A stretch of DNA of 64,000 nt from positions 23,912 to 87,911 of the forward strand of contig CAYREV010000007.1 in the NCBI GenBank assembly GCA_964423345.1, given 5' to 3'. The notes under the pieces were generated by a model. That model saw only the letters and a list, made by a program, of their open reading frames with translations, was not told the origin of the DNA and did not search any database. This DNA comes from an uncultured Balneolaceae bacterium. Lineage in GTDB: Bacteria > Bacteroidota > Rhodothermia > Balneolales > Balneolaceae. Shown one piece after another: positions 1-18,583 of this stretch. The position numbers and the translations under genes are program-made. The first letter of the stretch is position 1. Each line of letters opens with the position of its first letter.

Positions 1-1940
1 GGCTCATACCGGCGGTTAAGTATCTCTTTCCCGTCTACCACGATGCGAAGGCGTACGGCCGACCGCTCCCGGGAAATCCTGTTATCCGGCCGCCGCATAT
101 GGGGCAAGAGGTTCTCCTGGGAAGGTGCATCCTCAACGTTATTATCCACCGGCCGCCCGGGAAGCGTAAAGGATACCACCAGGCTCGAATCACTTTGAAC
201 CGGCAAGCTGTAGGGAGCCTTGCTAAAGAAGTAGGTCAGAAAACCCAGAACGGCTATCAGCGATAATCCCATTATATACCGGGCCGCTTTGCTTCCCCGA
301 GCCTTCGGCAGCTCCTGTTGCCCCCCATGCTCCCTGAAAGCACGGGCCTCCCGTATAAATGCCGCGGAATCCACCTGGTTAAAACGCAGATAACGAATGC
401 GGGAGGGGTCTGCCTTTTCACTTCTCAGCTCCGGATGCCTCGCCCCTTCCAGGCGCATGCCGGTCCACTTCGTCCCCAGCCTGAAGTCAGGTTCGCTCTG
501 GCAGCCGACAACCAGTACCCTCTCTGCTCCCTTTCTCAATACCCGCTCTATCATAAGCGGATGCACCCATCCCACACAGGGAACGGAGCGGACGATATAT
601 CCCGGCAGCTCTTTGCAACGGCCGGTTTCCTCATCAATTTGGAGCTCTGCCCCGGCCGAAGCCGAACAAATGTAGGCAACATATGCCGAGCCTTCCTCAT
701 CAAGCCTGTTTTCCAGCCATCCGTCCACTTCCCTTCGCACCTCGTTGGGCTGTAGCTGCGGAAAGGATATGCCCGCGGGGTCACAGGCCCCAACGCATAT
801 GCCGCAGGACATACACTTCGAGGGATCGATGGAGGCATAATAGTCACCTCTTTTGATATCTCCCTCTTCCCTGCGCAACATGGTCACAGCATTAAAGGGA
901 CAATCTTTATAACACTGTTCACACCCATTGCACAGTGAGGGGTCGACTTCAGGTTTCGGTGGCTCTTTTTTTACCAATAGCCAGGGTACGCTGATAAACC
1001 CAATAAAACCGACCAACAGTAACAGCCAGAGCATTCCGCCCTCCAGCCGGTCGGTGAAGTAAACGGGAATCATATAAAAATAATCGATGGGCATCGCCTC
1101 CTGCATTTCCAGCATGCGGGCGGGCTTGGTCAGGTCGGCAGGCAGCCAAACCGACATAATACAGAGTGAACCGGTCACGGCCCAGGTCATCGGTTTATTG
1201 GTAATAAAGTTAGCCTTGTTAAGCCGCGACACATGCAGCCACAAGGCAATTCCTATAGCCAGCGGTATCAGCATATGGAAGAAGAAAACCAGGAAAAACA
1301 GCAGGGAGTTGAAACTGTCGTCGGTCAGGAAGGAGCGGCTGAGCGGCTCGGCAAAAATCGGCAACTGGTCCAGCATCCGGGCAGTCCCCACCGCTACCTG
1401 GTTGGCCCTTTCATCCCAGACCAGCCAGTATCCCAGCCAGCCGTCAAACCAGAGTAATGCCACCGCCAGGATGCCGGTAACCCAGGCGAGCCACCTGCCT
1501 CCACCCAGGCGCTTGGCAAAAAACATTTTGAAGGCATGAAAAAGTATAAACAACATGCATGCATCCGAGCTGTAGCGGTGGAGGGCCCTGAAAAACTCCC
1601 CTGCCGGATTCATATGCAGCAGGGAATCGTAGGCCTGGTACACACTCGGCTTATACCATAACAGCAGGACAAATCCGGAGACCAGGGCAATCACAAAAGT
1701 AAGGTTGGCGATAGCACCCGACTGGGTAAAGGGGTTGAATGCGGGAGACAACACCTTTTCCACCCACTTGTCAAGCCGTTGAAACCACCGGTTACCGATA
1801 TTAAAAAACCATTCAGCCCGAACGGTCGACTCAGGGCACTGCTCTTTTACCCGGCTTTTATAGTCGCCGTTTTTTTTGAATGAGCTGTGGTCGCCTCCGG
1901 CCAGCTCCGCCAGATTAATTTCTTCAGTCAGGGTATTCAT
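1..1940 (-). CDS. Multidomain redox membrane protein, partial (C-terminus lies beyond the window edge): cytochrome b-type di-haem domain + 2x[4Fe-4S] ferredoxin domain + MvhD/FlpD-like domain + extra TM segment
   Basis: The minus-strand frame is open from the ATG at 1940 to position 1. It is absent from the ORF track because it has no in-window stop, so this is my own translation. 'FFRALHRYSSDACMLFILFHAFKMF..RWLAWVTGI' and 'FFFHMLIPLAIGIALWLH' give two His-x13-His pairs, as in cytochrome b helices B and D. 'CNGCEQCYKDCP' and 'CMSCGICVGAC' (about nt 960-800) are two CxxCxxCxxxC cluster motifs. 'YICSASAG...VPCVGWVHPLMIERVLRKGAERVLVVGCQ' resembles the MvhD/FlpD fold but with several Cys missing. 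The start overlaps the stop of the upstream SCO1-like gene (1924-1940). Confidence 0.7.
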   Translation of the reverse strand, partial: MNTLTEEINLAELAGGDHSSFKKNGDYKSRVKEQCPESTVRAEWFFNIGNRWFQRLDKWVEKVLSPAFNPFTQSGAIANLTFVIALVSGFVLLLWYKPSVYQAYDSLLHMNPAGEFFRALHRYSSDACMLFILFHAFKMFFAKRLGGGRWLAWVTGILAVALLWFDGWLGYWLVWDERANQVAVGTARMLDQLPIFAEPLSRSFLTDDSFNSLLFFLVFFFHMLIPLAIGIALWLHVSRLNKANFITNKPMTWAVTGSLCIMSVWLPADLTKPARMLEMQEAMPIDYFYMIPVYFTDRLEGGMLWLLLLVGFIGFISVPWLLVKKEPPKPEVDPSLCNGCEQCYKDCPFNAVTMLRREEGDIKRGDYYASIDPSKCMSCGICVGACDPAGISFPQLQPNEVRREVDGWLENRLDEEGSAYVAYICSASAGAELQIDEETGRCKELPGYIVRSVPCVGWVHPLMIERVLRKGAERVLVVGCQSEPDFRLGTKWTGMRLEGARHPELRSEKADPSRIRYLRFNQVDSAAFIREARAFREHGGQQELPKARGSKAARYIMGLSLIAVLGFLTYFFSKAPYSLPVQSDSSLVVSFTLPGRPVDNNVEDAPSQENLLPHMRRPDNRISRERSAVRLRIVVDGKEILNRRYE

Positions 1941-2937
1941 CTTTCAGATTGAGGTTTACAGAGTGGTTCAATGTCTTTTCCAACGGTGGGGCATCCTCTT
2001 GAACAAGCAGGCGTGTTGCTTTCAGCAGCCATTTCTGCTGTCGGTCTCCCAGCGTAAACCGGTAGGCTATGGTGCCATTTTTGTCAATGAGTATAAAGAG
2101 GTTCGCGTGGTCAATTGCCCCGTCTTCCCTTCTTATCCGGGGAATGTTAAGCTTGTCAAGGATCTCATTGATATATCCCGCTTCTCCCGTCAACAGATGC
2201 TGATTCGGTTCCGTCAACTCATAATGGTCGGCCGTCATTTTAAGCATGTCGGGAGTGTCTTTCGACGGATCCATGGTCAATGCCATCAGCTGTACCTGCC
2301 CGGCCTCCTTCTCGTTCAGTTCAGCAAGCACCTGTTTGGCCTGTTCCAGAATCAGGGGGCATGTTTCGGCACACGAGGCGTAAACCGCGGTAAGCATTAT
2401 CACATTCTCTCCCCTGTAATCGTCCAGCGAAATGTATTCCTTGTGCTGATTGACCAGCGTAAATGAGGGCGGACTAAATTCTGTCCTCAGGCTCTCGGCC
2501 GGAAACGGTAGTTCCCCTTCACTTTTCAACGAATAAAATGAGGGAAGGGTCAACCCCACGCCCAAAACTAAAACCAATGCCAGGCAGACAGCCGGCAAGG
2601 CAGGCGTCCACCCCTCTTTCAGTAAATCCGAGAGAGGGCGATACCAAAAAATTATTACAAACGTACTGAGGATGGCGGGCTGAACGATAAACATAGCCAG
2701 GTAGATAGACTCGATCTCACCCGTGGCCGGATCATAGCCCAGGCACCAGGTTTTAAACTCCTCGGCAAAAGCACCCAGGGTGGAACCGGAAACCGGGATC
2801 ATCGAAACCGCCAGAACCAGAACGGCAAAAAAGAACAGTACCGAAAGCATGAAAACGGGAAAGCGCCACGAGGAAAAGAAAGCTTCCAGGGAATATAGGA
2901 GATGCTTTGCCTGTTCTGTAGATGGGTCTTTCTTCAT
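1924..2937 (-). CDS. SCO1/SenC-family copper chaperone (thioredoxin fold) fused to an N-terminal polytopic membrane domain
   Basis: 337-aa ORF. The C-terminal half carries 'VIMLTAVYASCAETCPLILEQ' (the CxxxC motif of SCO1/SenC) and 'LMALTMDPSKDTP'. The N-terminal ~150 aa contain 3-4 hydrophobic helices. It lies directly downstream of HCO subunit I. Confidence 0.8.
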   Translation of the reverse strand: MKKDPSTEQAKHLLYSLEAFFSSWRFPVFMLSVLFFFAVLVLAVSMIPVSGSTLGAFAEEFKTWCLGYDPATGEIESIYLAMFIVQPAILSTFVIIFWYRPLSDLLKEGWTPALPAVCLALVLVLGVGLTLPSFYSLKSEGELPFPAESLRTEFSPPSFTLVNQHKEYISLDDYRGENVIMLTAVYASCAETCPLILEQAKQVLAELNEKEAGQVQLMALTMDPSKDTPDMLKMTADHYELTEPNQHLLTGEAGYINEILDKLNIPRIRREDGAIDHANLFILIDKNGTIAYRFTLGDRQQKWLLKATRLLVQEDAPPLEKTLNHSVNLNLKDEYPD

Positions 2938-3088
2938 AATAAATGCCTACTTTTTTTAATCAAGCTGATACAGCTAAAAACCCCTCCGGCCGGTACTACC
3001 GGCCAGAAGGTGATTTTAGTACTAATCCAACGTTTAGCTTACCGTAAGGGTATTATTCAGCAATTCCCCTCAACGGCACTCTACTTTG

Positions 3089-4816
3089 TCAACGAACGAA
3101 CCAAAGGTCAGCCAGGGCTTTCCAGTTGGCGAAATAGTAGATGGCGAAAGTCAACAGGAATATAATTACGACCGTCATGGTTCCGGGCGTTTTTACATGT
3201 TCGTAATCTTCGCCTTCCTCCTCATAGCCCTTCTCAATCAGCTCATCCTTCAGGCGGGTGGAATTTTCGTCCTGCCAGCTTTTCATCGGCTGTCCCTCAT
3301 TGGAACGTCCGAAGAACACCGCTGCAACCACCAGCCCGACAAAGAGCAGCAGGCCGAGGAATGCCAGTATCCCTCCAATTCCGACCAGCCCGAGCATGAC
3401 ATGGGCAATGGGATCAAAACCGGAATCAAGGATGGAGCCGCTGAAGTCGATATCATAGTGACGGCGCGGAACTCCATAGGAACCGGCGAACGACATACCC
3501 ATCGACATGATCACGATACCTCCTCCGAAAAGGTAGGGCTGTATGCGCGCCCACTTCTTAAGATAGAACTCGCGCTGGAATATGAGCGGCACCAGGTAGT
3601 AGGCCAGCCCCATGAAAGCGAGAGTGGTCCCTCCAACTACCGTTGCATGGAAGTGTCCGGGGATCCTGAGCGTGTTATGAGCAATAATATTGATCTGTTC
3701 GGTACCCAGCGTAACCCCGGTAATGCCTCCGATAAATCCGAAGATGACAATGGATAGCAGAATGGCCGAAAAGCCCGGGTCTTTCCATGGAAGTTTTGCG
3801 AACCATCCGAAAATACCCTTGGTAAAACCTTTACGGCGCTGTGCCACCTCAAGAGATGCGGGAACCGTATAGCCGTGAATCATGGAGGCCAATACCGCAA
3901 GATACATGGCATAGGAGGTGTTCCAGATTTTCCATCCGGCACCTACACCCGGATCCACCAGCAGGTGGTGGGCCGAAGCCAGGTTTATAAAAAGAATATA
4001 GAGCACGAAAGCCCCGCGGCAAACCGTTTGATTCAGGGGTTTGGCCCCCGTTGTCATCGTAGCCATGAAATACCAGACGGCAACCATGGCACAAACATTA
4101 ATCTGCTGTGACATATGTCCGAGTCCCCACCAGAGCAGGCGGTAAAGTCCGGGATCGTACGACTCGATCCACCCCATGGACCAGAAATAGGCGGGTACCA
4201 GGGCAGCCGCACCGTGAAGAAGCGCCAAAACCGCTATGATAGCCGCGGCGGCCGCACCGAAAGTTACCAGGGGCATCGAGCCCTCGTAGGTTTTATCCCG
4301 CTTGGCTATATAGAGGGTGGCAAAAAAGTTAAAACAGACAATCAATGCCCCGACGGCAAAGAGGATGATCCCCAGGTAAAAAAGCGGATGCGCTTTCAGC
4401 GGTACGTAGGACGTCATCAGCACATCGGCCTGTCCGGCAAGGATGATATAATTGGTCAATACCGCCCCAATAGTCATCAGCCCCAGTGAAAGGTGTGCCA
4501 GCTTTTTAGAAAACAGGCGACTGTTCAACAGGCTTGTGCTTGCGAAATAGAGGATGCCCATCTCCATGAAGATGATCCAGAAGACCAGCATATTGATCCC
4601 GTGGAAGGTCAACATACGGTAGTACCAGACGCTGTCGAGCAGGTGGACGGCCGTCCAGCGGGTCAGGGCCAAACCGATAGCGGCTATGGCGCCGAGCAGG
4701 AGAAAGACAACGGCTAATACGGCATTCGCCCGCACGAAATACTGTGCGTTTAGAAATACCCGAAGACCGGTAGTAGTACAGGTTCTGAACTTGGCTAAGG
4801 CTTGTGTAGCTTTCAT
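3089..4816 (-). CDS. Haem-copper oxidase superfamily subunit I, B-family (ba3)-like but lacking the cross-linked tyrosine; putative NO reductase of the eNOR/sNOR type
   Basis: 575-aa polytopic protein. Ligand set: His72 'LTFHGINM', His234 'WWGLGHMSQQ', His283/284 'SAHHLL', His388/390 'PGHFHA'. Gln238 sits at His+4, where ba3 has Tyr237. The gene lies next to a CuA subunit II and a SenC gene, in a nirK/azurin/Rrf2 context. Confidence 0.85.
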   Translation of the reverse strand: MKATQALAKFRTCTTTGLRVFLNAQYFVRANAVLAVVFLLLGAIAAIGLALTRWTAVHLLDSVWYYRMLTFHGINMLVFWIIFMEMGILYFASTSLLNSRLFSKKLAHLSLGLMTIGAVLTNYIILAGQADVLMTSYVPLKAHPLFYLGIILFAVGALIVCFNFFATLYIAKRDKTYEGSMPLVTFGAAAAAIIAVLALLHGAAALVPAYFWSMGWIESYDPGLYRLLWWGLGHMSQQINVCAMVAVWYFMATMTTGAKPLNQTVCRGAFVLYILFINLASAHHLLVDPGVGAGWKIWNTSYAMYLAVLASMIHGYTVPASLEVAQRRKGFTKGIFGWFAKLPWKDPGFSAILLSIVIFGFIGGITGVTLGTEQINIIAHNTLRIPGHFHATVVGGTTLAFMGLAYYLVPLIFQREFYLKKWARIQPYLFGGGIVIMSMGMSFAGSYGVPRRHYDIDFSGSILDSGFDPIAHVMLGLVGIGGILAFLGLLLFVGLVVAAVFFGRSNEGQPMKSWQDENSTRLKDELIEKGYEEEGEDYEHVKTPGTMTVVIIFLLTFAIYYFANWKALADLWFVR

Positions 4817-4836: not shown

Positions 4837-5361
4837 TTATTCGACAATGATTTTACCGGTCATCATATGGTGCCCGATGCCGCAAAATTCGTTACATATG
4901 ATATCAAAAGTCCCCGTAGTGGTGGGAGTCATGGTCAGCACATGATCGTAACCCGGAAGGATGTGGAAATTCATGTTCATCGGCAGCAGGGAGAAACCAT
5001 GCTGCAAATCGGGTGAAGAGATATGTATGCGATAGGTCTGATCTTTTTTAAGTTTCAGAACAGGATACCAGTTCCACATCTTTCCAACCAGGTAGGCATC
5101 TCCGCCCGGGGCGGGTTCAACGATAGGTATTCCATTCATCTCCCCCACCTTGTTTGTTTCAATGAATCGGTCGGTTCGATCCAGGAAAGCGGCGGCTTCC
5201 ACTCTATAGGATTCTCCCGTACTGTTTTGCTTCCCTTTGAAGTGCCAGTACGGCATGGTTACAGACATGACCAGACACCAGACTAAAGCCAGCCCGACCC
5301 AAAGGCGCTCGGTGCCGGTTGGGGCTTTAAACCAGTTTCCAACAGGATGAAAAATACTCAT
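4837..5361 (-). CDS. HCO subunit II, cupredoxin domain with intact CuA site, single N-terminal TM helix
   Basis: 174 aa. 'DLQHGFSL' plus 'FDIICNEFCGIGHHMMTGKIIVE' gives the H...CxxxCxxxHxxM CuA ligand pattern. It is very similar to ba3 subunit II 'CNQYCGLGHQNM'. It sits 20 nt upstream of subunit I. Confidence 0.85.
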   Translation of the reverse strand: MSIFHPVGNWFKAPTGTERLWVGLALVWCLVMSVTMPYWHFKGKQNSTGESYRVEAAAFLDRTDRFIETNKVGEMNGIPIVEPAPGGDAYLVGKMWNWYPVLKLKKDQTYRIHISSPDLQHGFSLLPMNMNFHILPGYDHVLTMTPTTTGTFDIICNEFCGIGHHMMTGKIIVE

Positions 5362-5390: not shown

Positions 5391-5540
5391 TCAGGGTAGC
5401 GTGGCATCACCCATTGATATTAATTCGATGACACCCCAGAGGGTGTAGGAGATGATGGGAATCAGCAAGCCCAGGGCTAGCAACAGCCAGATGTTGTCCA
5501 GGAACCGCTGTCCTAATGGTTTTTCTTCTTCTGATTTCAT
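5391..5540 (-). CDS. Small (49 aa) single-TM peptide, positional analogue of ba3 subunit IIa
   Basis: My own translation, since it is below the ORF-track size cut-off: 'MKSEEEKPLGQRFLDNIWLLLALGLLIPIISYTLWGVIELISMGDATLP'. It has one hydrophobic helix and fills the gap between the HCO paralogue and subunit II. The order small-II-I matches cbaD-cbaB-cbaA of Thermus. Confidence 0.4.
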   Translation of the reverse strand: MKSEEEKPLGQRFLDNIWLLLALGLLIPIISYTLWGVIELISMGDATLP

Positions 5541-5554
5541 AACGATTATTGTTT

Positions 5555-6988
5555 TTATGTTTGAGGGTACATTCGCTTATTCTTCCAGGCCTTGACCATG
5601 ATCCAGAGAAACAGCAGGCCCCCGGAAACGGCCAGCAGTCCGCCGATAGTCATAATCCCCAGGCCCGCAAATACTTCTATAGAATCGATCTGCTGTTCGG
5701 AACCGAACGATTTTCTGGCCAGTCCGTGGTATCCCGCATAACCGAAACCGGCGGCAAACAGCGCCTGCCCGAATCCAAACAGCAGGGGTTGTATAGCGGC
5801 AAGCTTCCTGCTCCGCCCCCCGGGCAGCCGTATGTCGTGTATCTCCAGCAACAGGTAGGTTACGGCCATAAATGCTACGGTTATCCCTCCCACGGCTGCA
5901 TGGTAGTGGGCCGGAATAAGGGTGTTGGAACCGTTGATCATCGCCCCGAGAATAAAACCGATGGAGGTAAGCAGCATACTGGTGACCAATCCGCCGAAAT
6001 AGGGATTTTTCAACAATCTGCCGGGCAGCTCGCCCTTGCGGCGGGCCCGTACCAAAACGACGATGATCAGAACCATAAAAACCGTGACTACGGGGAATAT
6101 GCCCCATTGCATATACCGGGTAAAACCGGAATGGTATAGCATGTTGGAAGTCCCTTTCATCGTGAGCAGCGGGGCTGCCAACACCGGGAGCGTAAAAAGG
6201 GCAAACAGGATGGCCGACCATCGATAGGGTATGGGATTTCTTTTAAGCAATTTGCCCAACAGGATAATCCACACCGACAGCATGGCTGCCACATTCACAA
6301 ACTGAAGCAGGTGCCCCCCTCCCCAGATGGTCAGCTCGTAGTAGGTTTGATCTGACAGGGTTTGGGGTGTGGCAAGCCAGGAACCGAAGAAGGTTACAAA
6401 GCTGACAATCAGCAGAATGGCCGCCGATCGAAAACCGGGCAAAGAGGAATCAGGAAACGCCCTTTCCATAGGGCGGCCGCTCGGAATGGCTGAAATACGG
6501 GAGTTCAAAACCGTACACAATACCCCGGCACCGAATATTAAGAGACCCCCGATAAAAAGAGGATGGTCGAGGACCGGTATATAATTGGACAAGACCGGTT
6601 CCACCCCGGATACAAATATGGAACTGACCACCATGCCCACTCCCGTGACCGCCAAAGCGTATCCCAGCGGGAGCAGCCTGTTGCTTTTCCCGGCGGCGGG
6701 TACCAATACAAAGAGTCCGCACAGAAATGCATATATCCAGATCAGCAGGGCCAGGTCTACATGGACCACGAGTCCCCTCTTGGCAAAAAGAGGGTCAGAA
6801 ATCAGCTCACTGATGAAAGGTGCCCTTGCCAGGACAATGATTATCGAAAACAGGCCCGACAGAAGCAGGGTCCCTATACTCAGGAAAATCCAAAGCCGGG
6901 AGAGGGTCTTTGACTCAATCCCGGCATGATCAACCCAGGACGCTACCGGGAACATTAATATTTTTTTTACCGCTGCTAACAATAGCAA
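5555..6988 (-). CDS. Divergent HCO subunit-I paralogue that retains the haem ligands but lacks the CuB His-His pair
   Basis: 477 aa. It is clearly paralogous to the 575-aa subunit I: 'NYIPVLDHPLFIGGLLIFGAGVLC' vs 'SYVPLKAHPLFYLGIILFAVGALI'; 'WGGGHLLQFVNV' vs 'WWGLGHMSQQINV'; 'IPAHYHAAVGG' vs 'IPGHFHATVVGG'. The helix VII segment 'LFALFTLPVLAAPLLTM' aligns with 'LYILFINLASAHHLLVD', so HH is replaced by AP. The track start is TTG at 6988; an in-frame ATG lies at 6955. Confidence 0.75.
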   Translation of the reverse strand: MLLLAAVKKILMFPVASWVDHAGIESKTLSRLWIFLSIGTLLLSGLFSIIIVLARAPFISELISDPLFAKRGLVVHVDLALLIWIYAFLCGLFVLVPAAGKSNRLLPLGYALAVTGVGMVVSSIFVSGVEPVLSNYIPVLDHPLFIGGLLIFGAGVLCTVLNSRISAIPSGRPMERAFPDSSLPGFRSAAILLIVSFVTFFGSWLATPQTLSDQTYYELTIWGGGHLLQFVNVAAMLSVWIILLGKLLKRNPIPYRWSAILFALFTLPVLAAPLLTMKGTSNMLYHSGFTRYMQWGIFPVVTVFMVLIIVVLVRARRKGELPGRLLKNPYFGGLVTSMLLTSIGFILGAMINGSNTLIPAHYHAAVGGITVAFMAVTYLLLEIHDIRLPGGRSRKLAAIQPLLFGFGQALFAAGFGYAGYHGLARKSFGSEQQIDSIEVFAGLGIMTIGGLLAVSGGLLFLWIMVKAWKNKRMYPQT

Positions 6989-7006
6989 TCACCATCCTTT
7001 GTTTTC

Positions 7007-7059
7007 AATAGAGCTCTTTGTCTATTATCTATATTTTTCAATAGAGTTACAAGTCTATT
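7007..7059. promoter_or_regulatory. Two direct copies of an operator-like palindrome AATAGA-N8-TCTATT in the divergent HCO-operon / Rrf2 promoter region
   Basis: 'TTTTCAATAGAGCTCTTTGTCTATTA' (arms at 7007-7012 and 7021-7026) and 'TTTTCAATAGAGTTACAAGTCTATTA' (arms at 7040-7045 and 7054-7059). The copies are 33 bp apart and lie 19-71 bp upstream of the HCO-paralogue start. A related TATAGA-N8-TCTATA is found in front of nirK. Confidence 0.4.
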
Positions 7060-7319
7060 AATAATTTTTTTTATATTTTAAATGAACCTTAATATTACCG
7101 GTTGAAGGCGGGTTGACCGGATGCAGCAGGGTGTTGCACCTGGCCTGATCCCGATCGCCAATAGGCGGCTAACCGTCATTTATAATGGACGGGCCCTCAA
7201 CCGGAATGAATTTGGAAATGGGAACAAGGAACAGTTCCTTTTAAAAAAATCGATATCTTGGGTACCGGCACCTGCGTTTGCCGTCTACGTTTGAACACTA
7301 AATCCTTCAGCAAAAGCCT

Positions 7320-7760
7320 ATGCATTTACCCCAGACTGCAGAATACGCCCTCAGGGCGATGGCATGTATCGCCCTGAAAAAAGATGAACGCCCGGTAACA
7401 TCGAAGGTACTGGCAGAGGCTACAAACATTCCCAGTCATTACCTGTCCAAAATCATGCGGAAAATGGTTGAAGCAGATCTTGTTACATCAAAAAAAGGAC
7501 ATGGCGGCGGTTTCCAACTGGCCCAATCGCCCGGGGATATCACCTTCAGGATGATCCTGGAGACGGTAGATTATGAAATAGAACCGGAAAGCTGTGTATT
7601 CGGATGGGAAAAGTGCAACAACGATGATCCCTGCCCCCTGCACAATACCTGGAGCCAGCTCAAGGATTCCTTTCACTGGTGGGCCGAAAACGTGACCCTT
7701 CAGGACGTTATAGACCACCCCGGGGAAACCGAACTTATCTTAACTCCCGGCAACGACTGA
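7320..7760 (+). CDS. Rrf2-family transcriptional regulator with three-Cys Fe-S motif (NsrR-like)
   Basis: 'MHLPQTAEYALRAMACIAL', 'IPSHYLSKIMRKMVEADLVTSKKGHGGGFQLA' (winged helix), and 'CVFGWEKCNNDDPCPLH' (three clustered Cys). It is divergent from the HCO operon and close to nirK. Confidence 0.85.
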   Translation: MHLPQTAEYALRAMACIALKKDERPVTSKVLAEATNIPSHYLSKIMRKMVEADLVTSKKGHGGGFQLAQSPGDITFRMILETVDYEIEPESCVFGWEKCNNDDPCPLHNTWSQLKDSFHWWAENVTLQDVIDHPGETELILTPGND

Positions 7761-9671: not shown

Positions 9672-10151
9672 CTAAGTTGCCTCCCTTTTTACAGTCAGGA
9701 TACCTTTCATACCGCCCGAATAGTGGCCCGGGAAGGTACAGATGTATTCGTACTCGCCCGGTTTGTCGGGAGCCGTAAAGGTAACCTCTACGGTTTCCCC
9801 TCCTCCGGCCAGGCCGGTATAGGCCAGGATCTGGTCCTCCATATCCGGTGCGATATATTCGTTGTCGGATGCTCGTGCCGAGGCGATAGCCACAGCAGTT
9901 GCATCCGCATCGGATTCCAGAAGAACGAAGTTGTGGGCCATAGCCACTTTCGGAAAGTCGCTGACCGTAGTCAGTTTAACGATGACCTTCTGGCCCGGCA
10001 GGACTTCGATATTAGTGACCGTAAACTTCAACTGGTTGGTTCCCTCCATTTCGATGACTTTGACGGCCGGGTTATCGGCCAGCCCGACCTGGGCTATTAA
10101 CAGCATCGGTAACAGGAGTAACAGTGATTTTATTTTTTTGATCGTTTCCAT
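9672..10151 (-). CDS. Azurin-like blue copper protein (cupredoxin), secreted
   Basis: Signal peptide, 'AMAHNFVLL' (His ligand), and 'YICTFPGHYSGGMKGILTV' (Cys-x2-Pro-Gly-His-x4-Met, as in azurin 'CTFPGHSALMKG'). Confidence 0.85.
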   Translation of the reverse strand: METIKKIKSLLLLLPMLLIAQVGLADNPAVKVIEMEGTNQLKFTVTNIEVLPGQKVIVKLTTVSDFPKVAMAHNFVLLESDADATAVAIASARASDNEYIAPDMEDQILAYTGLAGGGETVEVTFTAPDKPGEYEYICTFPGHYSGGMKGILTVKREAT

Positions 10152-10200: not shown

Positions 10201-11331
10201 TTACTTGATGTCGGCATCAAAGATGTCCGGGCGTTTCTTGCCTTCCACATTGATGATACCGAGCATGCCTTTATGGGCAACCCTGCTGAGGGCGTGGTCG
10301 ACCAGCTTGACCGGTCCGGGTACGGGGAAATCCATTTCAAAGATGCCGCAGCTTCCCGGTGCCACATGGCAGGTTTGCACATATCGTTCCGGCTTGCTGG
10401 CAATGGCCCCTTCTCTCCAGGCTTTGGTGAATACATTGCCGATGGGGTGGAAATTGCTGGTCACATTCGGCCCGCCGGTAACCAGGTAGATACGCGCGGT
10501 CTCGCCGGTTTTGACATTGAGCGCTCCATACCGGTTGTCGGTGATGGCCTGGGATTCGCCGTTCAGCAGTACATAATTTGGATTTTCATCGATCATGGCC
10601 TGCGTATTGAAAAGGTGCATACCCTTCTCTCCCGCTTCCCTGTTGGTATATACCTCGTGCTGTCCGAAGTAGAACTCGTGATCTACCGGGGGAAGACCCT
10701 CTTCGGGCTCTACCAGTATCATGCCGAACATTCCGCTGCTGATGTGGTAGTCCATGCGTGGGACCGCACAGTGATAGATGAAGGCTCCGGGGTACATCGC
10801 CTTGAATTTCAGCTTGGTGGATTGGCCGGGAGGGCACAGGGTGGCTTCGGCTCCTCCGCCGGGGCCATAAACCGCGTGGAAGTCCACGTTGTGAATCATG
10901 GTATTTTCAGAGAGGTTCTTATGGGTCAATATTACCGTATCGCCCTGGCGTACACGCACCATGGGGCCGGGTACCTGCCCGTTGTATGTGAGATACTTGA
11001 ACTTGACGCCGTCTTCGATTTCGGCGATGACCTCCCGGCTTTCGAGCGTGATCTCATGGATTTTGGGCTTTCGGCGCTTGATCGGCCCGGGGATGTCGGT
11101 AGGATCGGCGGCAACCCGCTGAACCGTGGGAATATTTAGCATGGAAGCCGGGGTGAAATCGCCCGCCTTGCCAACTTCTTTGGCCTGCCCCACCTTGGGG
11201 AACCCCATGCCGGCCAGGAACCCGCCTGAGAGCAGGGCCGCGCCCGTGTTTCTCAGAAACCTTTTTCGAGACTGGGTAGGCTTGTCGTTAACGGCAGTGA
11301 TTTGATCGGAAGTATAATTTTTGCTTTCCAT
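10201..11331 (-). CDS. nirK: Copper-containing nitrite reductase NirK with Tat signal
   Basis: 'RKRFLRNTGAALLSGGFLAGMG' twin-arginine leader; 'HNVDFHAVYGPGGGA' and 'YHCAVPRMDYHISSGMFG' type-1/type-2 Cu ligand motifs; 376 aa two-cupredoxin size. Confidence 0.92.
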   Translation of the reverse strand: MESKNYTSDQITAVNDKPTQSRKRFLRNTGAALLSGGFLAGMGFPKVGQAKEVGKAGDFTPASMLNIPTVQRVAADPTDIPGPIKRRKPKIHEITLESREVIAEIEDGVKFKYLTYNGQVPGPMVRVRQGDTVILTHKNLSENTMIHNVDFHAVYGPGGGAEATLCPPGQSTKLKFKAMYPGAFIYHCAVPRMDYHISSGMFGMILVEPEEGLPPVDHEFYFGQHEVYTNREAGEKGMHLFNTQAMIDENPNYVLLNGESQAITDNRYGALNVKTGETARIYLVTGGPNVTSNFHPIGNVFTKAWREGAIASKPERYVQTCHVAPGSCGIFEMDFPVPGPVKLVDHALSRVAHKGMLGIINVEGKKRPDIFDADIK

Positions 11332-11355: not shown

Positions 11356-11375
11356 TATAGATTTAATTGTCTATA
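11356..11375. promoter_or_regulatory. Operator-like palindrome TATAGA-N8-TCTATA between the putative nirK promoter and the nirK start
   Basis: It has the same architecture (6-bp arms, 8-bp spacer, ATAGA/TCTAT core) as the two sites at 7007-7059. It lies 25-45 bp upstream of the nirK ATG. Confidence 0.35.
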
Positions 11376-11399
11376 GATAATTTTGTCTACTAATAGTAA

Positions 11400-11768: not shown

Positions 11769-13859
11769 ATGGACATGAATGGCCCAAATTCCGCTCCCGA
11801 AAAACGATGGTCCCGTCCCCTTGTGATCCTCGTATCGGCGTTTCTGCTGTTTGAAACCATTACCGGCCTGCTGATATACTTTCTTCCGTTCAGTATCAGC
11901 AACCAGATGATGATCCTTGTCCACACCGGCATTGGGATCGCATTCTGTATCCCCTACCTGGTGTACCAGGTACAACACTGGCTCAGTCAGCGCCAACGAC
12001 CGCTCAGTGAAATCAAGCTTACAGGGTACATCTCCATGTTCGCTGCCCTGGCAGCCGTCATATCGGGACTGGTCCTTACATGGCAGGCCCTGTTTGAAGT
12101 CCGTATCAGCTATACATGGGACAAGATCCACCTGTTCTCTACTTATGTGCTGCTGGCCTCACTGCTACCACATATTGTGCTCATTGTCATACGCGACTAC
12201 AAGGCACGCAACAATCCGGTGATGAAACCGGTGATCGAATCCGAAAAGAATTTCGGCATAAGCAACCTCTTTGCCGTGCTTGCACAATTTGCGCTGGTAT
12301 TACTGCTTATATATGCTTTTGAGCCGACTCCCGTCGATAATAGCCTTCCCGAAGATTACCACTATACGGACGAAAGCGGCGACCGGCCCTTTGCGCCCAG
12401 CCTGGCAACCACCGAAAACGGCGAGGGCATCGATGACCTGCTGCTGGGAAAATCGGAAACATGCAGCAGTTCGGGATGCCACGAACAGATCGGAAAAGAG
12501 TGGGAGGCCAGCGCTCACCGCTACTCGGCTATGGACCCGGCTTTCCGGGCCGTCCAGACCGCCATGGGTAATCAGGAGGGACCCATGTCTACCCGTTATT
12601 GCGGTGGTTGCCACGATCCCATCTCCCTGTTTTCCGGAACCAAGAACCTGTTCAGCGACAGCCTGACCAATAAGATGGGCATGGACGAAGGGGTCTCCTG
12701 TGTCTCCTGCCATGCCATCAAGCAGGTGGATGTATCAGGAAATGCCGATTATGTGATTGCACCGCCCGAACGCTATATCTTTGAACTGAAAGACGGTAAG
12801 ATGGCCAAACTGATCAGTGATTTTCTGATTAGGGCCTACCCCCAGAAACATATCGACACCTTCCAGCGGCCACTGCTGAAAACTCCGGAATTCTGCGGAT
12901 CCTGTCATAAACAGTTTATAGACGAAGAGATCAATAACGTCGGATGGGTACAACTGCAGAACCAATACGACAATTGGCGTAAGAGCCGGTGGAATCATCC
13001 CAAAGAACCCACAAAAACCATTCAGTGCCGGGAATGCCATATGCCCCTCACAGATTCCTTTGATCCTGCCAGCGGGGACGATTTGGATTACAACCGTACC
13101 AAGGACGACGGGAAGCACCGGGACCATCGATTCCTCGGAGCCAACCAGCTGATACCCACCCTGCTGGACCTGCCGGGAGCCGAAGAGCACGTCAAACTCA
13201 CCGAAAAATGGCTAAGGGGTGAAATAGAGATTCCGGAAATCGCCGACAAATGGCGAACCGGGCCCGCAGTGCCCATCAACATTGTTGCTCCGAGAGAGAT
13301 AACCGCAGGCAATGACCTTGAGATAAGCATTGTCATAAGCAACAACAAAACAGGACACCACTTCCCCACCGGACCGCTCGATATCATTCAATCCTGGCTG
13401 GAGATTGTGGTGACAGATCAGGATGGAAACGAGATATTCACTTCCGGAACCCTGGACGAAAATAATTTTATCGAACCCGGCTCCTTTATTTTTAAAGCCG
13501 AACCGGTAGACCAGTACAATAATGTTATCGACCGGCACAACCTATGGGAAATGGTGGGCGTACGATACAGCCGGGCCCTCTATCCCGGCCATTCCGATAA
13601 CGCCGACTTCCGGATACCCCTGCCCGATTCACTGGGCCGGAAAAGCAGTGTTTCCATGAACATACCGGGCGACAAGCTCAACACCGATAAACACCAAACC
13701 ATTTTGAATATCAGTGCCCGTCTTCAGTACCGGAAAATAAATCAATACCTGATGAATGCGGTTTTCGGCAATACCTACGACAACCCCACCGCCACTGTTA
13801 CTACGATTTCAAGCGACCGGGCCGATGTAACCGTACTGAAAACAGACGCAACCTATTAG
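11769..13859 (+). CDS. Membrane-anchored multihaem cytochrome c (N-terminal ~5-TM domain + periplasmic domain with five haem-binding motifs)
   Basis: 696 aa. The N-terminal ~190 aa hold five hydrophobic helices with several His. Haem motifs are 'CSSSGCH' (CX4CH), 'CGGCH', 'CVSCH', 'CGSCH' and 'CRECH'. Confidence 0.8.
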   Translation: MDMNGPNSAPEKRWSRPLVILVSAFLLFETITGLLIYFLPFSISNQMMILVHTGIGIAFCIPYLVYQVQHWLSQRQRPLSEIKLTGYISMFAALAAVISGLVLTWQALFEVRISYTWDKIHLFSTYVLLASLLPHIVLIVIRDYKARNNPVMKPVIESEKNFGISNLFAVLAQFALVLLLIYAFEPTPVDNSLPEDYHYTDESGDRPFAPSLATTENGEGIDDLLLGKSETCSSSGCHEQIGKEWEASAHRYSAMDPAFRAVQTAMGNQEGPMSTRYCGGCHDPISLFSGTKNLFSDSLTNKMGMDEGVSCVSCHAIKQVDVSGNADYVIAPPERYIFELKDGKMAKLISDFLIRAYPQKHIDTFQRPLLKTPEFCGSCHKQFIDEEINNVGWVQLQNQYDNWRKSRWNHPKEPTKTIQCRECHMPLTDSFDPASGDDLDYNRTKDDGKHRDHRFLGANQLIPTLLDLPGAEEHVKLTEKWLRGEIEIPEIADKWRTGPAVPINIVAPREITAGNDLEISIVISNNKTGHHFPTGPLDIIQSWLEIVVTDQDGNEIFTSGTLDENNFIEPGSFIFKAEPVDQYNNVIDRHNLWEMVGVRYSRALYPGHSDNADFRIPLPDSLGRKSSVSMNIPGDKLNTDKHQTILNISARLQYRKINQYLMNAVFGNTYDNPTATVTTISSDRADVTVLKTDATY

Positions 13860-13872
13860 AAGTTTATTCAGC

Positions 13873-15669
13873 ATGTCCAGAAGAAAAAAACGAATTCTCT
13901 ACACCTCCCTCTTTTCAACTGCCATATTTCTGCTGGCCGGCTGGCACATTTGGGAAGATGATGAAAGGAAAATCTACCTGCCGGGAGAAGAAGTACAGGG
14001 CGTAACCACTCGCCTGAACCGGGAGATCCCCAAAGACTTTAATGCTTTCACCTTTAGCGATGTTACGGACAAGTCGGGTATCGACTTTACCCATTTCAAC
14101 CACAGGAGAAGTTCCCGGCTTCCCGAGGACATGGGTTCCGGGCTCGCCTGGTTCGACTATGATAACGACGGATGGGACGATCTGTTCCTGCTTAATTACT
14201 CTCTTCCCCTGGGTGATCAACATAAAGATCCCGATCAGACTCCGTCCAGAAGCAAACTGTACAGGAACAACGGGGACGGTACTTTTACGGATGTAAGCAA
14301 ACAGTCGGGCTTGGACCTGGCGGTCAGGGGAATGGGCGTAGCTGCGGCCGACTACGACAACGACGGGTGGACCGACCTCATTATAACAACCTACGGAACC
14401 AACCGCCTTATGAAAAACAACGGAGACGGAACCTTTACAGATGTAAGCAAGGAAGCGGGCATCGATTTCGGACCGGGCTTCTGGGCCGGGGCATCGTGGG
14501 GGGACTTCAACCGCGACGGAAATCCGGATCTTTATATTACGGGGTACGTCAAATTTGAAGATTTCGACTTGTCGGGCGAGAAACTTGCGGTTGAGGAACC
14601 GCCCAGCATCAATCCCTCCTCCTTTCTTCCCGAACGCAACCTGTTATATCAAAATAACGGGAACGGAACTTTTACAGAAATATCCCGCCAGACAGGTACG
14701 ATCAACGCTACCGGGCGCAGCCTCTCGGCCTCTTGGGTGGATGTGAATAACGATTTATGGCCCGACCTGTATGTGGCTAATGACGTCTCCGACAATATCT
14801 TATATCTCAACAACGGCGACGGTACATTTAGCGATATTAGCCATACCGCCCATGTGGCCGACTACCGGGGGGCCATGGGGCTGGCTACCGGCGACTGGGA
14901 CGGTGACCTTGACATGGATCTTTTTGTGACTCACTGGATCGCCCAGGAAAATGCGCTTTATACCAACCGCCTGCGCGATACCCTGCAGTCGTCTTCCGGA
15001 AGGCTTCGTTTCAAAGATGATTCGGCCAACCATGGCCTGGGACAATCCTCGCTGGATTTCGTGGGTTGGGCAACGGCTTTTACCGACTTCGACCTGGATT
15101 CGCGGCCGGATATCTTTATAGTCAACGGCAACACCATCCAGTATCCGGACAATCCCGAAAGACTAAAACCGATGACCGACCAGATATACTGGAATGCCGG
15201 AGCCAAACGAGGTTTTTACGATGTCTCAAAATTAAGCGGCTCCTATTTTGCCAAGGAGTTTGTCGGGCGCGGCGGTGCATATGCCGACTTTGATCATGAC
15301 GGAGATCCCGATTTGGCCATCATCAACCACGGTGGCAAGGCTGTATTGCTCGAAAATAATCAACATAGCGGAAACCATTGGCTGAGCATCAGGCTGGAAG
15401 GCACCGAAAGCAATCGTTCGGCCATAGGTGCTCATATTCGCATCACCACGGCAGAAAAAGTACAGGTGAAACAGGTGGGTTCCCAAAGTTCCTATCTCTC
15501 GCACAACAGCCTGGAACAACATTTCGGTTTGGGCAAGCACCGCAAAGTGGATACCCTGGAAATCAGGTGGCCCGGGGGTAAAATTGATACCTTCCCGGAT
15601 ATCAAGGCGAATCAGGTTCTGATCATAAAAGAAGGATCAACTGAATCATCCATCATGGCAGTCAATTAA
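13873..15669 (+). CDS. CRTAC1-family protein (FG-GAP/VCBS repeats + ASPIC/UnbV C-terminal domain)
   Basis: Repeated 'DYDNDGW.DL' / 'NNGDGTFTDVS' FG-GAP-type calcium-binding repeats. The C-terminal 'AIGAHIRITTAEKVQVKQVGSQSSYLSHNSLEQHFGLG' is typical of ASPIC/UnbV. Confidence 0.85.
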   Translation: MSRRKKRILYTSLFSTAIFLLAGWHIWEDDERKIYLPGEEVQGVTTRLNREIPKDFNAFTFSDVTDKSGIDFTHFNHRRSSRLPEDMGSGLAWFDYDNDGWDDLFLLNYSLPLGDQHKDPDQTPSRSKLYRNNGDGTFTDVSKQSGLDLAVRGMGVAAADYDNDGWTDLIITTYGTNRLMKNNGDGTFTDVSKEAGIDFGPGFWAGASWGDFNRDGNPDLYITGYVKFEDFDLSGEKLAVEEPPSINPSSFLPERNLLYQNNGNGTFTEISRQTGTINATGRSLSASWVDVNNDLWPDLYVANDVSDNILYLNNGDGTFSDISHTAHVADYRGAMGLATGDWDGDLDMDLFVTHWIAQENALYTNRLRDTLQSSSGRLRFKDDSANHGLGQSSLDFVGWATAFTDFDLDSRPDIFIVNGNTIQYPDNPERLKPMTDQIYWNAGAKRGFYDVSKLSGSYFAKEFVGRGGAYADFDHDGDPDLAIINHGGKAVLLENNQHSGNHWLSIRLEGTESNRSAIGAHIRITTAEKVQVKQVGSQSSYLSHNSLEQHFGLGKHRKVDTLEIRWPGGKIDTFPDIKANQVLIIKEGSTESSIMAVN

Positions 15670-15671
15670 AT

Positions 15672-16535
15672 ATGAAAAAGATTTTTATTCCCACATTTTT
15701 AATCCTGGGGTTGCTGTTCCTGGTCATCACCTACTTCAAATATGCCCCCTCCTCTACTTCAGATGCATCCGATACAGGAGAAGGAAAACAGAAATCCACT
15801 GAAGTTATTGAGTTCTGGAACCACTACGACCGGGCAACCGACTTGCGAACCGCAGGAGAGTTTCAGCAAGCGACGGCAAGATACCGGGAAGCCCTCAAGA
15901 TTGATTCCACCCACTCTAATGCCCTCTACTATATGGGCAATATGCAGATGGTACTGGGCGACTATGCCGATGCCGAAAAATACTGGAACCGTTTGATCAG
16001 GCTTAATCCTGCCAGCGCACGCGCCCATATTCAACTGGGAACCCTTTACAGTTGCAGTGAAGAATTGAATAAACAACTGTACCACCCTCCAAAAGCCTTT
16101 GCCCATTTTAAAAAAGCCATGGAGATTAACCCCGAGGATACCGGTCCCATGCTGCAGATGGCCAAGATGGACCTCGTCAACAATCGCCTGAAAGAGGCCC
16201 GACAGAAACTGGCCGATGTTGTTTCCAGTAATTTCAGAAGCACGGAAGGCATCTTTTTACAGGGATACCTGGCCTGGAAAGATAAAGGTGCCGATGAAGC
16301 TACCACATACCTGGAAAAAGCCGCGGCCATTGTGAAAGGTGACGATGAACGATATGCCAATGCGGGCGAAGGTGAAACCTCGGGGGGAGACGATCCATTG
16401 GCCATGGCTGCTCTTCGTTGTAACCTGTACAGCGACCTTATCAAAAATTTGATTACCGCCCATCTGGAAGGGCGTTTATCCGGTACGGAACAGGTATACC
16501 GCAGCTTCGACAGGGAAATCGCTTCCTCCTCCTGA
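15672..16535 (+). CDS. TPR-repeat protein with N-terminal TM/signal anchor
   Basis: 287 aa. TPR-like 34-aa repeats ('ATARYREALKIDSTHSNALYYMGNMQMVLGDYADAEKYWNRLIRLNP'). It starts 2 nt after the CRTAC1 gene stop. Confidence 0.75.
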   Translation: MKKIFIPTFLILGLLFLVITYFKYAPSSTSDASDTGEGKQKSTEVIEFWNHYDRATDLRTAGEFQQATARYREALKIDSTHSNALYYMGNMQMVLGDYADAEKYWNRLIRLNPASARAHIQLGTLYSCSEELNKQLYHPPKAFAHFKKAMEINPEDTGPMLQMAKMDLVNNRLKEARQKLADVVSSNFRSTEGIFLQGYLAWKDKGADEATTYLEKAAAIVKGDDERYANAGEGETSGGDDPLAMAALRCNLYSDLIKNLITAHLEGRLSGTEQVYRSFDREIASSS

Positions 16536-17236: not shown

Positions 17237-18583
17237 ATGGAATATTACCGGAAATTTATCTCTTCTGTGGAATCGCTATATTTTCGAGGTGGTTTGCCAA
17301 CCTCACAAAATATAAACAGGGCCAAGGAGCACAAGATGGCAAGCGGGATAACATCCACTAACTCTCTTAAGCACGATCCCTTGTGGTCGGTTACCTTCGC
17401 CTGCTTTATGCTGGCAGCCCTAACGGGCTCCCTCTACCGCTACGGCATGATCGGCACCCTCCCCTGGGAATTGAGCCTCGACAATATTCGCCATGCACAT
17501 TCCCATCTTATGTTCTTCTCCTGGGCCGCCCCCCTCCCTCTCTATATATTCCTGCTAAAAATGAAGGGATGGGTCAACAGCCGGGATACCGCCATTCGAT
17601 GGATGAAAATATCTCTTTGGGCCTGCCTGGCTTTTGGACTTATATCCTACCCATTTTTTCTACTATACGGCTATCATCCGGTGCCGGTCGGTTCCTCGTC
17701 CCTTCCCCTGTCGGTTATCATGTCCGGCATGGTCATGCTCTCATGGTACCTCTACATGGGTAGTTATCTTACTCTAAGAAAAAAGTTGAGCAACCGAACC
17801 AAACCGTGGATGGAAGCTTCCATGTTCATGCTTTTTATCTGTTCACTTGGGGCATGGGGCGTTGCCCTGGTACAGGCACTGTTTCCGGAAGCCCATTTAA
17901 TGATGAAAGGGCTGACGCATTTTTTTCTTGCGGCTTTTACAGAAGGGTGGGTGGTTCTGGCCCTGCTCTCGATGCTGCTTGATGCCCTACCGCTGGATAA
18001 GCGCGCGCTTCCCCTATCCCAGCATACCCTTATCGGCATGATCGCCATAGGTGCACCCCTGACATTTCCCTATGGTATTTCTGAAACCCTTTTGTCTCCC
18101 CTCCTGCTGGTTGTTGCCCGTTTTGGGGGACTGGTTATTGCCACCGCTTTGCTCACCCTTCTTTACGGTATGTTTAAGTCGGCAACATGGGAAAAATCCC
18201 TTTGGAAATGGGTTCTCGGATTGCTTCTGCTCAAGGCCCTAATGCAGCTCAGTGCCTCCCTCCTGCCCTCCGGCTTCTGGCTTTCGGAACCTACGTTCCG
18301 GGTGTTGTACCTCCATCTGCTCCTGCTCGGGGCATTCACATTGGGCATGGTAGGATGGCTTCATCATAATTCAGAAGCACCCGACAGGCCCTATACCTTA
18401 TTTGCCTGGACTGTAGCTATTTTATTGGTCAGCCTGGTCACACTGAGCCCACTATGGCCCGGTTCCTGGAGAGGCATGTGGATTTTCTATTTTGTTTGGG
18501 GCGCTACCCTGCTGCCGGTATTAGCCCTTGCCTATGAATGGATAACCTTAAAAGTAACATACGGGGATACTTCGCATGAGTGA
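17237..18583 (+). CDS. Polytopic membrane protein with conserved His motifs (NnrS-like or HCO-helix-like; function unknown)
   Basis: 448 aa with about 12 hydrophobic helices. Motifs: 'RHAHSHLMFFSWAAP', 'LTHFFLAAFTEGW', 'LYLHLLLLGAFTLGMVGW'. The true start is probably the internal Met at 17336 ('MASGITS'). It lies 12 nt after the OsmC gene. Confidence 0.6.
   Translation: MEYYRKFISSVESLYFRGGLPTSQNINRAKEHKMASGITSTNSLKHDPLWSVTFACFMLAALTGSLYRYGMIGTLPWELSLDNIRHAHSHLMFFSWAAPLPLYIFLLKMKGWVNSRDTAIRWMKISLWACLAFGLISYPFFLLYGYHPVPVGSSSLPLSVIMSGMVMLSWYLYMGSYLTLRKKLSNRTKPWMEASMFMLFICSLGAWGVALVQALFPEAHLMMKGLTHFFLAAFTEGWVVLALLSMLLDALPLDKRALPLSQHTLIGMIAIGAPLTFPYGISETLLSPLLLVVARFGGLVIATALLTLLYGMFKSATWEKSLWKWVLGLLLLKALMQLSASLLPSGFWLSEPTFRVLYLHLLLLGAFTLGMVGWLHHNSEAPDRPYTLFAWTVAILLVSLVTLSPLWPGSWRGMWIFYFVWGATLLPVLALAYEWITLKVTYGDTSHE

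Follow-up and report, generated by a model that had tools for sequence, protein, structure and literature searches.

Comparison with described nitric oxide reductases

The eNORs are nitric oxide (NO) reductases of the haem-copper oxidoreductase (HCO) type, derived from the B family and having both a CuA site and a K channel resembling that of cytochrome ba3 (Murali et al., 2024; PMC11214002). Their stated diagnostic is a glutamine at the position of the cross-linked tyrosine (PMC8756737, section 2.7.1 and Table A4, after Hemp and Gennis, 2008); the same position is occupied by Asn in sNOR and CuANOR/bNOR, by Asp in gNOR and by Glu in cNOR and qNOR (PMC8756737, Table A4). Both eNOR and bNOR retain the equivalent of ba3 Ser309, which sNOR has lost, and the low-spin haem has His/Lys ligation in "some eNORs" (Murali et al., 2024; PMC11214002). 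The enzyme purified from Rhodothermus marinus contains haem As in both sites and reduces NO with a kcat of 0.68 per s (PMC11214002, section 6), and it does not reduce O2 with any of several donors (PMC11214002, sections 5 and 6). Here we describe a gene that very probably encodes subunit I of a further member of this family. It lies at positions 3089–4816 (minus strand) of a 64,000-nucleotide stretch of DNA from an uncultured Balneolaceae bacterium (GenBank assembly GCA_964423345.1, contig CAYREV010000007.1, positions 23,912 to 87,911 of the forward strand), which is referred to below as the window.

Subunit I and its active site

Translation of 3089–4816 gives a protein of 575 residues, which is identified as an HCO subunit I by Pfam COX1 (3e-70) and was assigned to its family by alignment with ba3, by a structural model and by a tree. 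It contains the six canonical histidines, namely H72, H234, H283/H284 and H388/H390. A sequence search returned the CbaA chains of Thermus ba3 as the best solved relatives (about 1e-45). An AlphaFold2 model, built with 46 homologues, has a mean predicted local distance difference test score of 81.6 and a predicted template modelling score of 0.86, and its best fold matches are again ba3 structures, with template modelling scores of 0.76–0.80. Thermus thermophilus ba3 (PDB 1EHK, 3S8F) is the closest solved structure by both sequence and fold, at about 25–30% identity and with almost the same numbering of the histidine ligands.

In a HMMER alignment, H72, H283/284 and H388/390 lie opposite H72, H282/283 and H384/386 of ba3, and the segment H234-M-S-Q-Q238 (codons CAT ATG TCA CAG CAG, 4103–4117, minus strand) lies opposite H233-P-I-V-Y237. 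The aligned stretches read wwglgHmsqQinv and fwwtgHpivYfwl, with Q238 at the position of the cross-linked Tyr237. The initial annotation, made from the sequence without database searches, had named this reading frame and these residues, had noted how close the histidine numbering is to that of Thermus ba3, and had proposed that Gln238 replaces Tyr237; the residues are all where it put them, and the alignment pairs every ligand and agrees on the replacement. From the alignment, H72 and H390 are predicted to bind the low-spin haem, H388 the high-spin haem, and H234, H283 and H284 the non-haem metal.

The differences from ba3 are concentrated in a few residues: Val236, Tyr237, Trp239 and Thr312 become Gln237, Gln238, Asn240 and His314, and subunit I has in addition an invariant Tyr302/Tyr305 pair and Asn278. 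The ba3 motif of the B family, HP[ILV]VYFW, is replaced by H-M-S-Q-Q-I-N, whereas the aligned B-family sequences all have VYFW.

These features are the ones described for eNORs: a glutamine four residues after the helix-VI histidine, six ligand histidines, a CuA-containing subunit II, and K-channel-like residues that include the Ser309 equivalent. The operon also contains an SCO1 gene, and the protein shares with other eNORs the misannotation as "cbb3-type cytochrome c oxidase subunit I" that the literature notes for them. NCBIfam has no eNOR-specific model. The initial annotation had deduced a CuA-fed NO reductase derived from an O2 reductase, which matches the literature definition of eNOR; the type was deduced correctly, but the enzyme was left unnamed there and had already been described. 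The enzyme type is known, the gene very probably encodes a further eNOR member, and the Tyr-to-Gln change in itself adds little beyond that.

Conservation and phylogenetic placement

Conservation was assessed in 239 homologues of subunit I, made up of 120 close homologues and 119 of the Chloroflexi type, the latter being 42–50% identical. The signature G-H-x-x-Q-Q-[IV]-N is invariant in all 239. Because H234, Q237, Q238 and N240 are invariant in both sets (120/120 and 119/119), Gln238 is not a chance substitution. The residues H72, Y249, H283, H284, S311, H314, H388 and H390 are likewise invariant in the two sets.

The top matches, at 88–92% identity, come from metagenome-assembled genomes (MAGs) of Balneolaceae and from Fodinibius halophilus (88%), and every named one is annotated as a cbb3-type oxidase or as cytochrome c oxidase subunit I. 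Such misannotation of eNORs is routine, and because of it genomes like that of the window appear to have nirK but no NO reductase. With the gene recognised, the segment from nitrite to N2O is complete for a Balneolaceae-type halophile, and there is further evidence for eNOR as a major source of N2O that is under-counted; in an estuarine survey of 2026, eNOR ranked first of the nor types in abundance and in expression (PMC13592168).

Relatives of subunit I are encoded in at least 567 GTDB species genomes. The counts out of 80 given below refer to the best 80 of these at least 567 matches, which are 64–91% identical and come from Balneolaceae, Rhodothermales, Myxococcota, Opitutaceae/Verrucomicrobiota, Leptospiraceae, Planctomycetota and Calditrichota. 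Subunit I belongs to a tight and widely transferred cross-phylum subclade with at least 64% identity. Rhodothermus is absent from the best 80 of the at least 567 matches, and the R. marinus eNOR was not returned by homologue searches seeded with a Rhodothermales MAG protein or the Thermomicrobium roseum protein. It is evidently outside the closest relatives of subunit I, since the matches listed, all of them at least 64% identical, do not include it.

More distant relatives, at 47–50% identity, are borne on plasmids of Defluviimonas, Thermomicrobium roseum and Thermus thermophilus, and all of them have GH-x-x-QQ-[IV]-N. The Thermus plasmid copies have H-F-K where the others have H-F-H, which would make lysine the second ligand of their low-spin haem, the His/Lys ligation that Murali et al. 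(2024) describe for some eNORs. One such copy, at 6010–7692 of the Thermus thermophilus plasmid pHB5018d (L083), adjoins genes for a multicopper oxidase and an Rrf2 regulator.

A neighbour search covering 1.84 billion cluster representatives yielded full-length proteins of four kinds: proteins with Gln at both 237 and 238 (QQ), a group with Gln237 that retains the tyrosine at 238 (QY), ordinary B-family oxidases, and relatives of the 477-residue paralogue described below. A haloarchaeal protein, from Natrarchaeobius, is among the QQ neighbours. In a neighbour-joining tree, calculated without support values and without reference sequences for R. marinus, Magnetospirillum, Natronomonas, sNOR, bNOR, gNOR or nNOR, the clade of subunit I falls inside the QQ group, together with the Natrarchaeobius protein, the Thermomicrobium/Chloroflexi type (an Ardenticatenales MAG is among its relatives) and the Thermus H-F-K copies. 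The QQ group is sister to QY, and both are apart from the B family. Plasmid matches from Deinococcus, Geobacillus and Methylobacterium, considered as sNOR references, were rejected as ordinary Tyr-containing B-family oxidases.

The QY clade (P0124, P0125 from Hodarchaeales, P0128 from Thermoproteota, and P0142) is 34–46% identical to subunit I and is the nearest neighbour of QQ in the tree. It shares Q237, N240, Y249, Y273, S311 and H314 with eNOR, but has Tyr at 238 and Val at 278, and lacks Y302 and Y305; the changes specific to QQ include Y238Q and V278N/Q, together with two gained tyrosines, Y302 and Y305. Since QY keeps Tyr238 and is without the Y302/Y305 pair, it is presumably an O2 reductase. 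It is possibly the K family, which has been found to cluster with eNOR (bioRxiv 592808).

In the alignment, a further set of HCO relatives of about 550 residues (P0170, P0174, P0184, P0223, P0249 and P0252) shows H-x-x-H-Y-x-P at the site on helix VI, Y-H where H-H would stand and a tyrosine where the high-spin haem histidine is expected. This may reflect either an artefact of the alignment or a separate divergent family.

Strength of the assignment and alternative readings

The assignment to eNOR fits the position of the gene in the QQ clade, the CuA subunit II, and the presence of nirK 5 kb away under a common operator-like palindrome. Several points weigh against it. Membership is argued from the diagnostic residue, from features described in the literature and from clustering with QQ proteins, in a comparison that did not contain the R. 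marinus sequence, and NO reductase activity would be attributed to the window enzyme by analogy with that of R. marinus. Identity to the other QQ proteins is only 40–50%, and no eNOR structure was found among the PDB fold matches to the model. Neither ctaA nor ctaB, which would bear on the haem type, was found in the window. The invariant Y302 and Y305, which are specific to eNOR, are predicted to lie near the level of the metal site on helix VIII. Finally, nirK is found within 10 kb in only 9 of the 80 related loci, and a link to denitrification therefore does not hold throughout.

The last of these points also speaks for the likeliest alternative, which we nevertheless regard as improbable: that the protein has the eNOR fold and a role other than respiratory NO reduction, whether NO detoxification only, the reduction of another small N- or O-oxide, or a function linked to the co-encoded cytochrome b/FeS/FlpD protein and the CuB-less paralogue, such as reverse electron flow or sensing. 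Neither nirK nor nirS is usually adjacent in the related loci, and the conserved partners described below are unusual for a simple terminal reductase. The turnover of the R. marinus enzyme, at 0.68 per s, is low (PMC11214002), and a 2026 preprint on Ferrigenium speculates that cytochrome b/FeS genes beside eNOR couple NO reduction to the reduction of NAD+ (10.64898/2026.01.22.701106). A respiratory NO reductase is favoured by the position of the window operon beside nirK, with the common operator-like motif, and by the conserved K-path residues, which fit an energy-conserving reductase; moreover, the sole family member tested turns NO into N2O (PMC11214002).

A different possibility is that the enzyme is still an O2 reductase, in which a helix-VIII tyrosine (Y302 or Y305) or Y273 of helix VII acts as the redox-active cofactor, in the manner of the helix-VII tyrosine of cbb3. 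The initial annotation had suggested that a tyrosine in SYAMYLAVLASMIHGY might take this role and had located the segment on helix VII. The AlphaFold model and the ba3 alignment place it instead on helix VIII: it comprises residues 301–316, within the model helix 293–328, which is the K-path helix. Helix VII of the model is 263–287 and ends at the His-His pair. No tyrosine was found at the position of the migrated cbb3 tyrosine, six residues before that pair on helix VII, where subunit I has Ile277. Tyr273, ten residues before the pair, is common to subunit I and the QY clade, and it is no replacement because QY has it together with the canonical tyrosine.

In favour of an O2 reductase are Y302 and Y305 (3902–3913, minus strand), which lie on helix VIII near the level of the metal site. 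Y302 is present in 11 of 11 and Y305 in 10 of 11 of a sample of the QQ clade, and in 119/119 and 118/119 of the Chloroflexi-type homologues. Both are missing from the Tyr-retaining QY clade and from the B family, so that their gain accompanied the loss of Tyr238. The two flank what we take, from the bovine and Rhodobacter structures, to be the helix-VIII position that hydrogen-bonds a CuB histidine, and are probably second-sphere residues of the metal site. It is conceivable, though unlikely, that the Tyr302/Tyr305 pair is some form of functional replacement for the lost tyrosine. No tyrosine has migrated, however, in the models of eNOR and related families (Murali et al., 2024; PMC11214002). 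The mapping of sequences, together with the published enzymology of another family member, argues against O2 reduction, and because that purified enzyme does not reduce O2 with several donors (PMC11214002), we rate an O2 reductase as very improbable.

Least likely of all is another Tyr-less offshoot of the B family, namely sNOR, bNOR, nNOR or gNOR. The SCO1/SenC gene directly downstream recalls the norSY-senC order of sNOR in ammonia oxidisers, and it was this adjacent gene that raised the sNOR reading. However, Asn occupies the Tyr position in sNOR and bNOR, gNOR has a ligand His replaced by Asp and is without CuA (PMC8756737, Table A4; PMC11214002, section 7), and nNOR combines a Glu site of the cNOR type with His/Met ligation of the low-spin haem (PMC11214002, section 7), whereas the window enzyme has Gln, six histidines, a complete CuA site and the K-path serine that sNOR has lost; on these residue criteria, sNOR and bNOR were rejected because of Gln238 and the retained Ser311 (PMC8756737, Table A4; PMC11214002, section 8), and gNOR because of the full set of histidines and the complete CuA.

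Subunit II, probable proton path and proposed mechanism

Subunit II of the eNOR is encoded at 4837–5361 (minus strand), upstream of subunit I, an order that is found in 78 of the 80 loci. It has 174 residues, with one transmembrane helix followed by a cupredoxin domain (Pfam COX2). Its CuA motif, H121...C156-x3-C160-x3-H164-x2-M167, aligns with H114, C149, C153, H157 and M160 of the ba3 CuA domain (2e-11). All five ba3-equivalent ligands are present, and the intact CuA site reported in the initial annotation is confirmed.

The residues of the ba3 K-path map on to subunit I as S309 to S311, T312 to H314, T315 to T317, Y248 to Y249 and S261 to N262. In ba3, Glu15 of subunit II precedes its helix. 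E18 of the window subunit II precedes the transmembrane helix in the same way and is a candidate equivalent. These correspondences make a cytoplasmic proton path plausible, and with it electrogenic reduction of NO.

In the mechanism that we propose, the sequence features, family placement, synteny and common motif are what the analysis shows. The NO reductase activity is taken over from the R. marinus enzyme, and the route of the protons, the donor of electrons, the identity of the non-haem metal, the type of haem and the pairing of regulator with operator are inferred. NO would be supplied by the neighbouring NirK. A periplasmic donor would reduce CuA (H121, C156, C160, H164 and M167). Its obvious candidate is the azurin-like protein whose gene adjoins nirK, and a c-type cytochrome is possible. 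Electrons would then pass from CuA to the low-spin haem (H72/H390) and on to the binuclear site, formed by the high-spin haem (H388) and the non-haem metal (H234/H283/H284), where two NO would be converted to N2O and water. This is a two-electron reaction that needs no tyrosyl radical, and Gln237, Gln238, Asn240 and Asn278 would form a polar, non-redox pocket in place of the tyrosine. Protons would probably come from the cytoplasm by the ba3-like K-path, through E18 of subunit II and then T317, Y249, H314 and S311, and because they would enter from that side the reaction would be electrogenic. Copper would be loaded into CuA by SCO1, and nirK and the eNOR operon would be co-regulated through the common palindrome, probably by the adjacent Rrf2 regulator.

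The C-family-derived cNOR and qNOR resemble this scheme in the proposed reaction, in the missing cross-linked tyrosine and in the polar pocket. They differ in having a Glu as fourth ligand of FeB, in receiving electrons through a haem c subunit or from quinol rather than through CuA, and in the lack of a conserved cytoplasmic proton channel (PMC11214002).

A conserved accessory module

The main value of the locus lies less in the Tyr-to-Gln change than in its conserved accessory genes and in the putative Rrf2-linked operator that it shares with nirK. Synteny was counted by tblastn of the window proteins against the 80 loci.

Upstream of subunit II, at 5555–6988 (minus strand), is a gene for a second HCO subunit I, a paralogue of 477 residues identified by hhalign and synteny. 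It is 27% identical to subunit I, and hhalign aligns all twelve helices with a probability of 100% (E value 7e-58). The haem ligands H76, H361 and H363 are kept, as is the distal H226, while the His-His pair of CuB is aligned to Ala-Pro. In at least 61 of 62 syntenic homologues H76, H226, H361 and H363 are conserved; the residue four after the histidine of helix VI is variably hydrophobic in this family. The paralogue has no PDB or NCBIfam match, and a limited literature search found no prior description of such a CuB-less protein. Other HCO proteins of about 476–479 residues without the His-His pair are P0218, P0225 (from an Anaerolineae MAG) and P0241.

The paralogue is found upstream in about 62–65 of the 80 loci, some 1.5 kb from subunit II. 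It is missing from the loci of Rhodothermales and "Bacteroidetes" MAGs and from the Defluviimonas, Thermomicrobium and Thermus operons, the last three of which have a haem o synthase gene in its place. Compared with other eNORs, the operon has no haem o/a synthase gene beside subunit I and usually has the CuB-less paralogue upstream instead.

Between the paralogue and subunit II, at 5391–5540 (minus strand), is an unannotated reading frame for a membrane peptide of 49 residues with a single helix and no family match. It is 45% identical over 42 residues to a small reading frame upstream of subunit II in Defluviimonas, with an E value of 0.34 in the window. The Thermomicrobium operon also has a small reading frame at the same position as that of Defluviimonas, and homologues of the Defluviimonas one occupy this position in 39 loci (tblastn, E<1e-6). 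The peptide is possibly a small subunit similar to subunit IIa of ba3.

Downstream of subunit I, an SCO1/SenC copper chaperone is encoded at 1924–2937 (minus strand; Pfam SCO1-SenC, 9e-19), with a CAETC motif and an N-terminal membrane domain of several helices. It is downstream of subunit I in 75 of the 80 loci, and presumably inserts copper into CuA. A consensus scan found a terminator-like hairpin between the two genes, at 2982–3010 (minus strand), with a 13-bp stem containing 9 G-C pairs and followed by a T-run, and this may attenuate transcription into the accessory genes.

The last gene of the set (1–1940, minus strand) starts at an ATG at 1940, overlaps the stop codon of SCO1 and runs off the start of the window. 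It encodes a fusion of a cytochrome b N-terminal domain, a 2x[4Fe-4S] ferredoxin, an FlpD/MvhD-like domain and a C-terminal membrane segment, with matches to Pfam Cytochrome_B (4e-16), Fer4 (1.5e-10) and FlpD (1e-7). Its Defluviimonas homologue is matched by tblastn at 2e-68. A homologue occurs in 76 of 83 loci as well as in the window (tblastn E<1e-6, with no coverage filter) and sits downstream of SCO1 in the loci listed. In the Ferrigenium preprint, eNOR operons consist of the two subunit genes (II, then I), haem o synthase, sco1 and what is termed a "scaffold protein", and cytochrome b/FeS genes beside eNOR are called unusual (10.64898/2026.01.22.701106), whereas in the clade of the window such a gene is the rule. 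The fusion suggests an electron route linked to quinone or to the cytoplasm and tied to eNOR.

It is conceivable, though we think it unlikely, that the cross-phylum clade is a distinct and undescribed eNOR subtype with a larger complex, made up of the paralogue, the 49-residue peptide, subunits II and I, SCO1 and the cytochrome b fusion. If this were true, the module could serve to connect the reduction of NO with the quinone pool or a redox carrier of the cytoplasm, beyond periplasmic cupredoxins, and the 477-residue paralogue could be an NO-binding, sensing or assembly subunit.

Genomic neighbourhood and possible regulation

The copper nitrite reductase gene nirK, 5 kb from the eNOR genes, lies at 10201–11331 (minus strand); its product has a twin-arginine motif and scores above the cutoff of TIGR02376 (3e-116). 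Adjoining it, at 9672–10151 (minus strand), is the azurin-like gene that the initial annotation had noticed, and this is a real cupredoxin with a signal peptide (Pfam Copper-bind 4e-15; TIGR02695 azurin 1e-18, below cutoff). It is a candidate periplasmic electron donor to NirK, to CuA or to both.

Divergent from the eNOR operon, at 7320–7760 (plus strand), is a gene for an Rrf2-family regulator (Pfam Rrf2 4e-34; TIGR00738 above cutoff), and a homologue is found in the 10-kb flank of 32 of the 80 loci, mostly divergent and immediately upstream. The NsrR model matches it at 1e-8, below cutoff, and it is a candidate NO-responsive, NsrR-like repressor.

The palindrome ATAGA-N8-TCTAT occurs in two copies (7008–7025 and 7041–7058) upstream of the eNOR operon, facing the Rrf2 gene. 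Just upstream of nirK there is a perfect copy at 11357–11374 and an overlapping copy with one mismatch at 11373–11390. Only three perfect copies exist in the 64 kb, against 0.06 expected, and they are found only before the eNOR operon (two) and nirK (one). Between the Rrf2 gene and eNOR the palindrome is found again in six related loci, five from Balneolaceae and one from Rhodothermales (L001–L006), with two copies 33 nt apart in L001–L004 and one each in L005 and L006. The common palindrome supports co-regulation of NO production and removal, as read from the sequence. It is a candidate operator for a regulon that would respond to NO, with the Rrf2 protein as the factor that would probably bind it and may sense NO. 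A scan for sigma-70 promoters did no better than on shuffled sequences, and Rfam gave no match over the window.

Elsewhere the window holds housekeeping genes (for Rho, pyruvate kinase, SHMT, TatC and alanine racemase), and the cluster is therefore chromosomal. Divergent from nirK, at 11769–13859 (plus strand), is a gene for a membrane-anchored multihaem cytochrome c of 696 residues with c554-like motifs, whose homologues, 56–59% identical, are found near eNOR in three of the related loci (L002, L003 and L035). It is followed by genes for an FG-GAP/ASPIC-UnbV protein (13873–15669, plus strand) and a TPR protein (15672–16535, plus strand). Further on, a polytopic membrane protein of 448 residues with no family match (17237–18583, plus strand) precedes two small paralogous membrane proteins of 147 and 138 residues (18719–19162 and 19192–19608, plus strand). 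These two are 25% identical to each other, and each weakly matches the N-terminal helices of COX1 and has a single conserved histidine and a GWI-x-Q motif.

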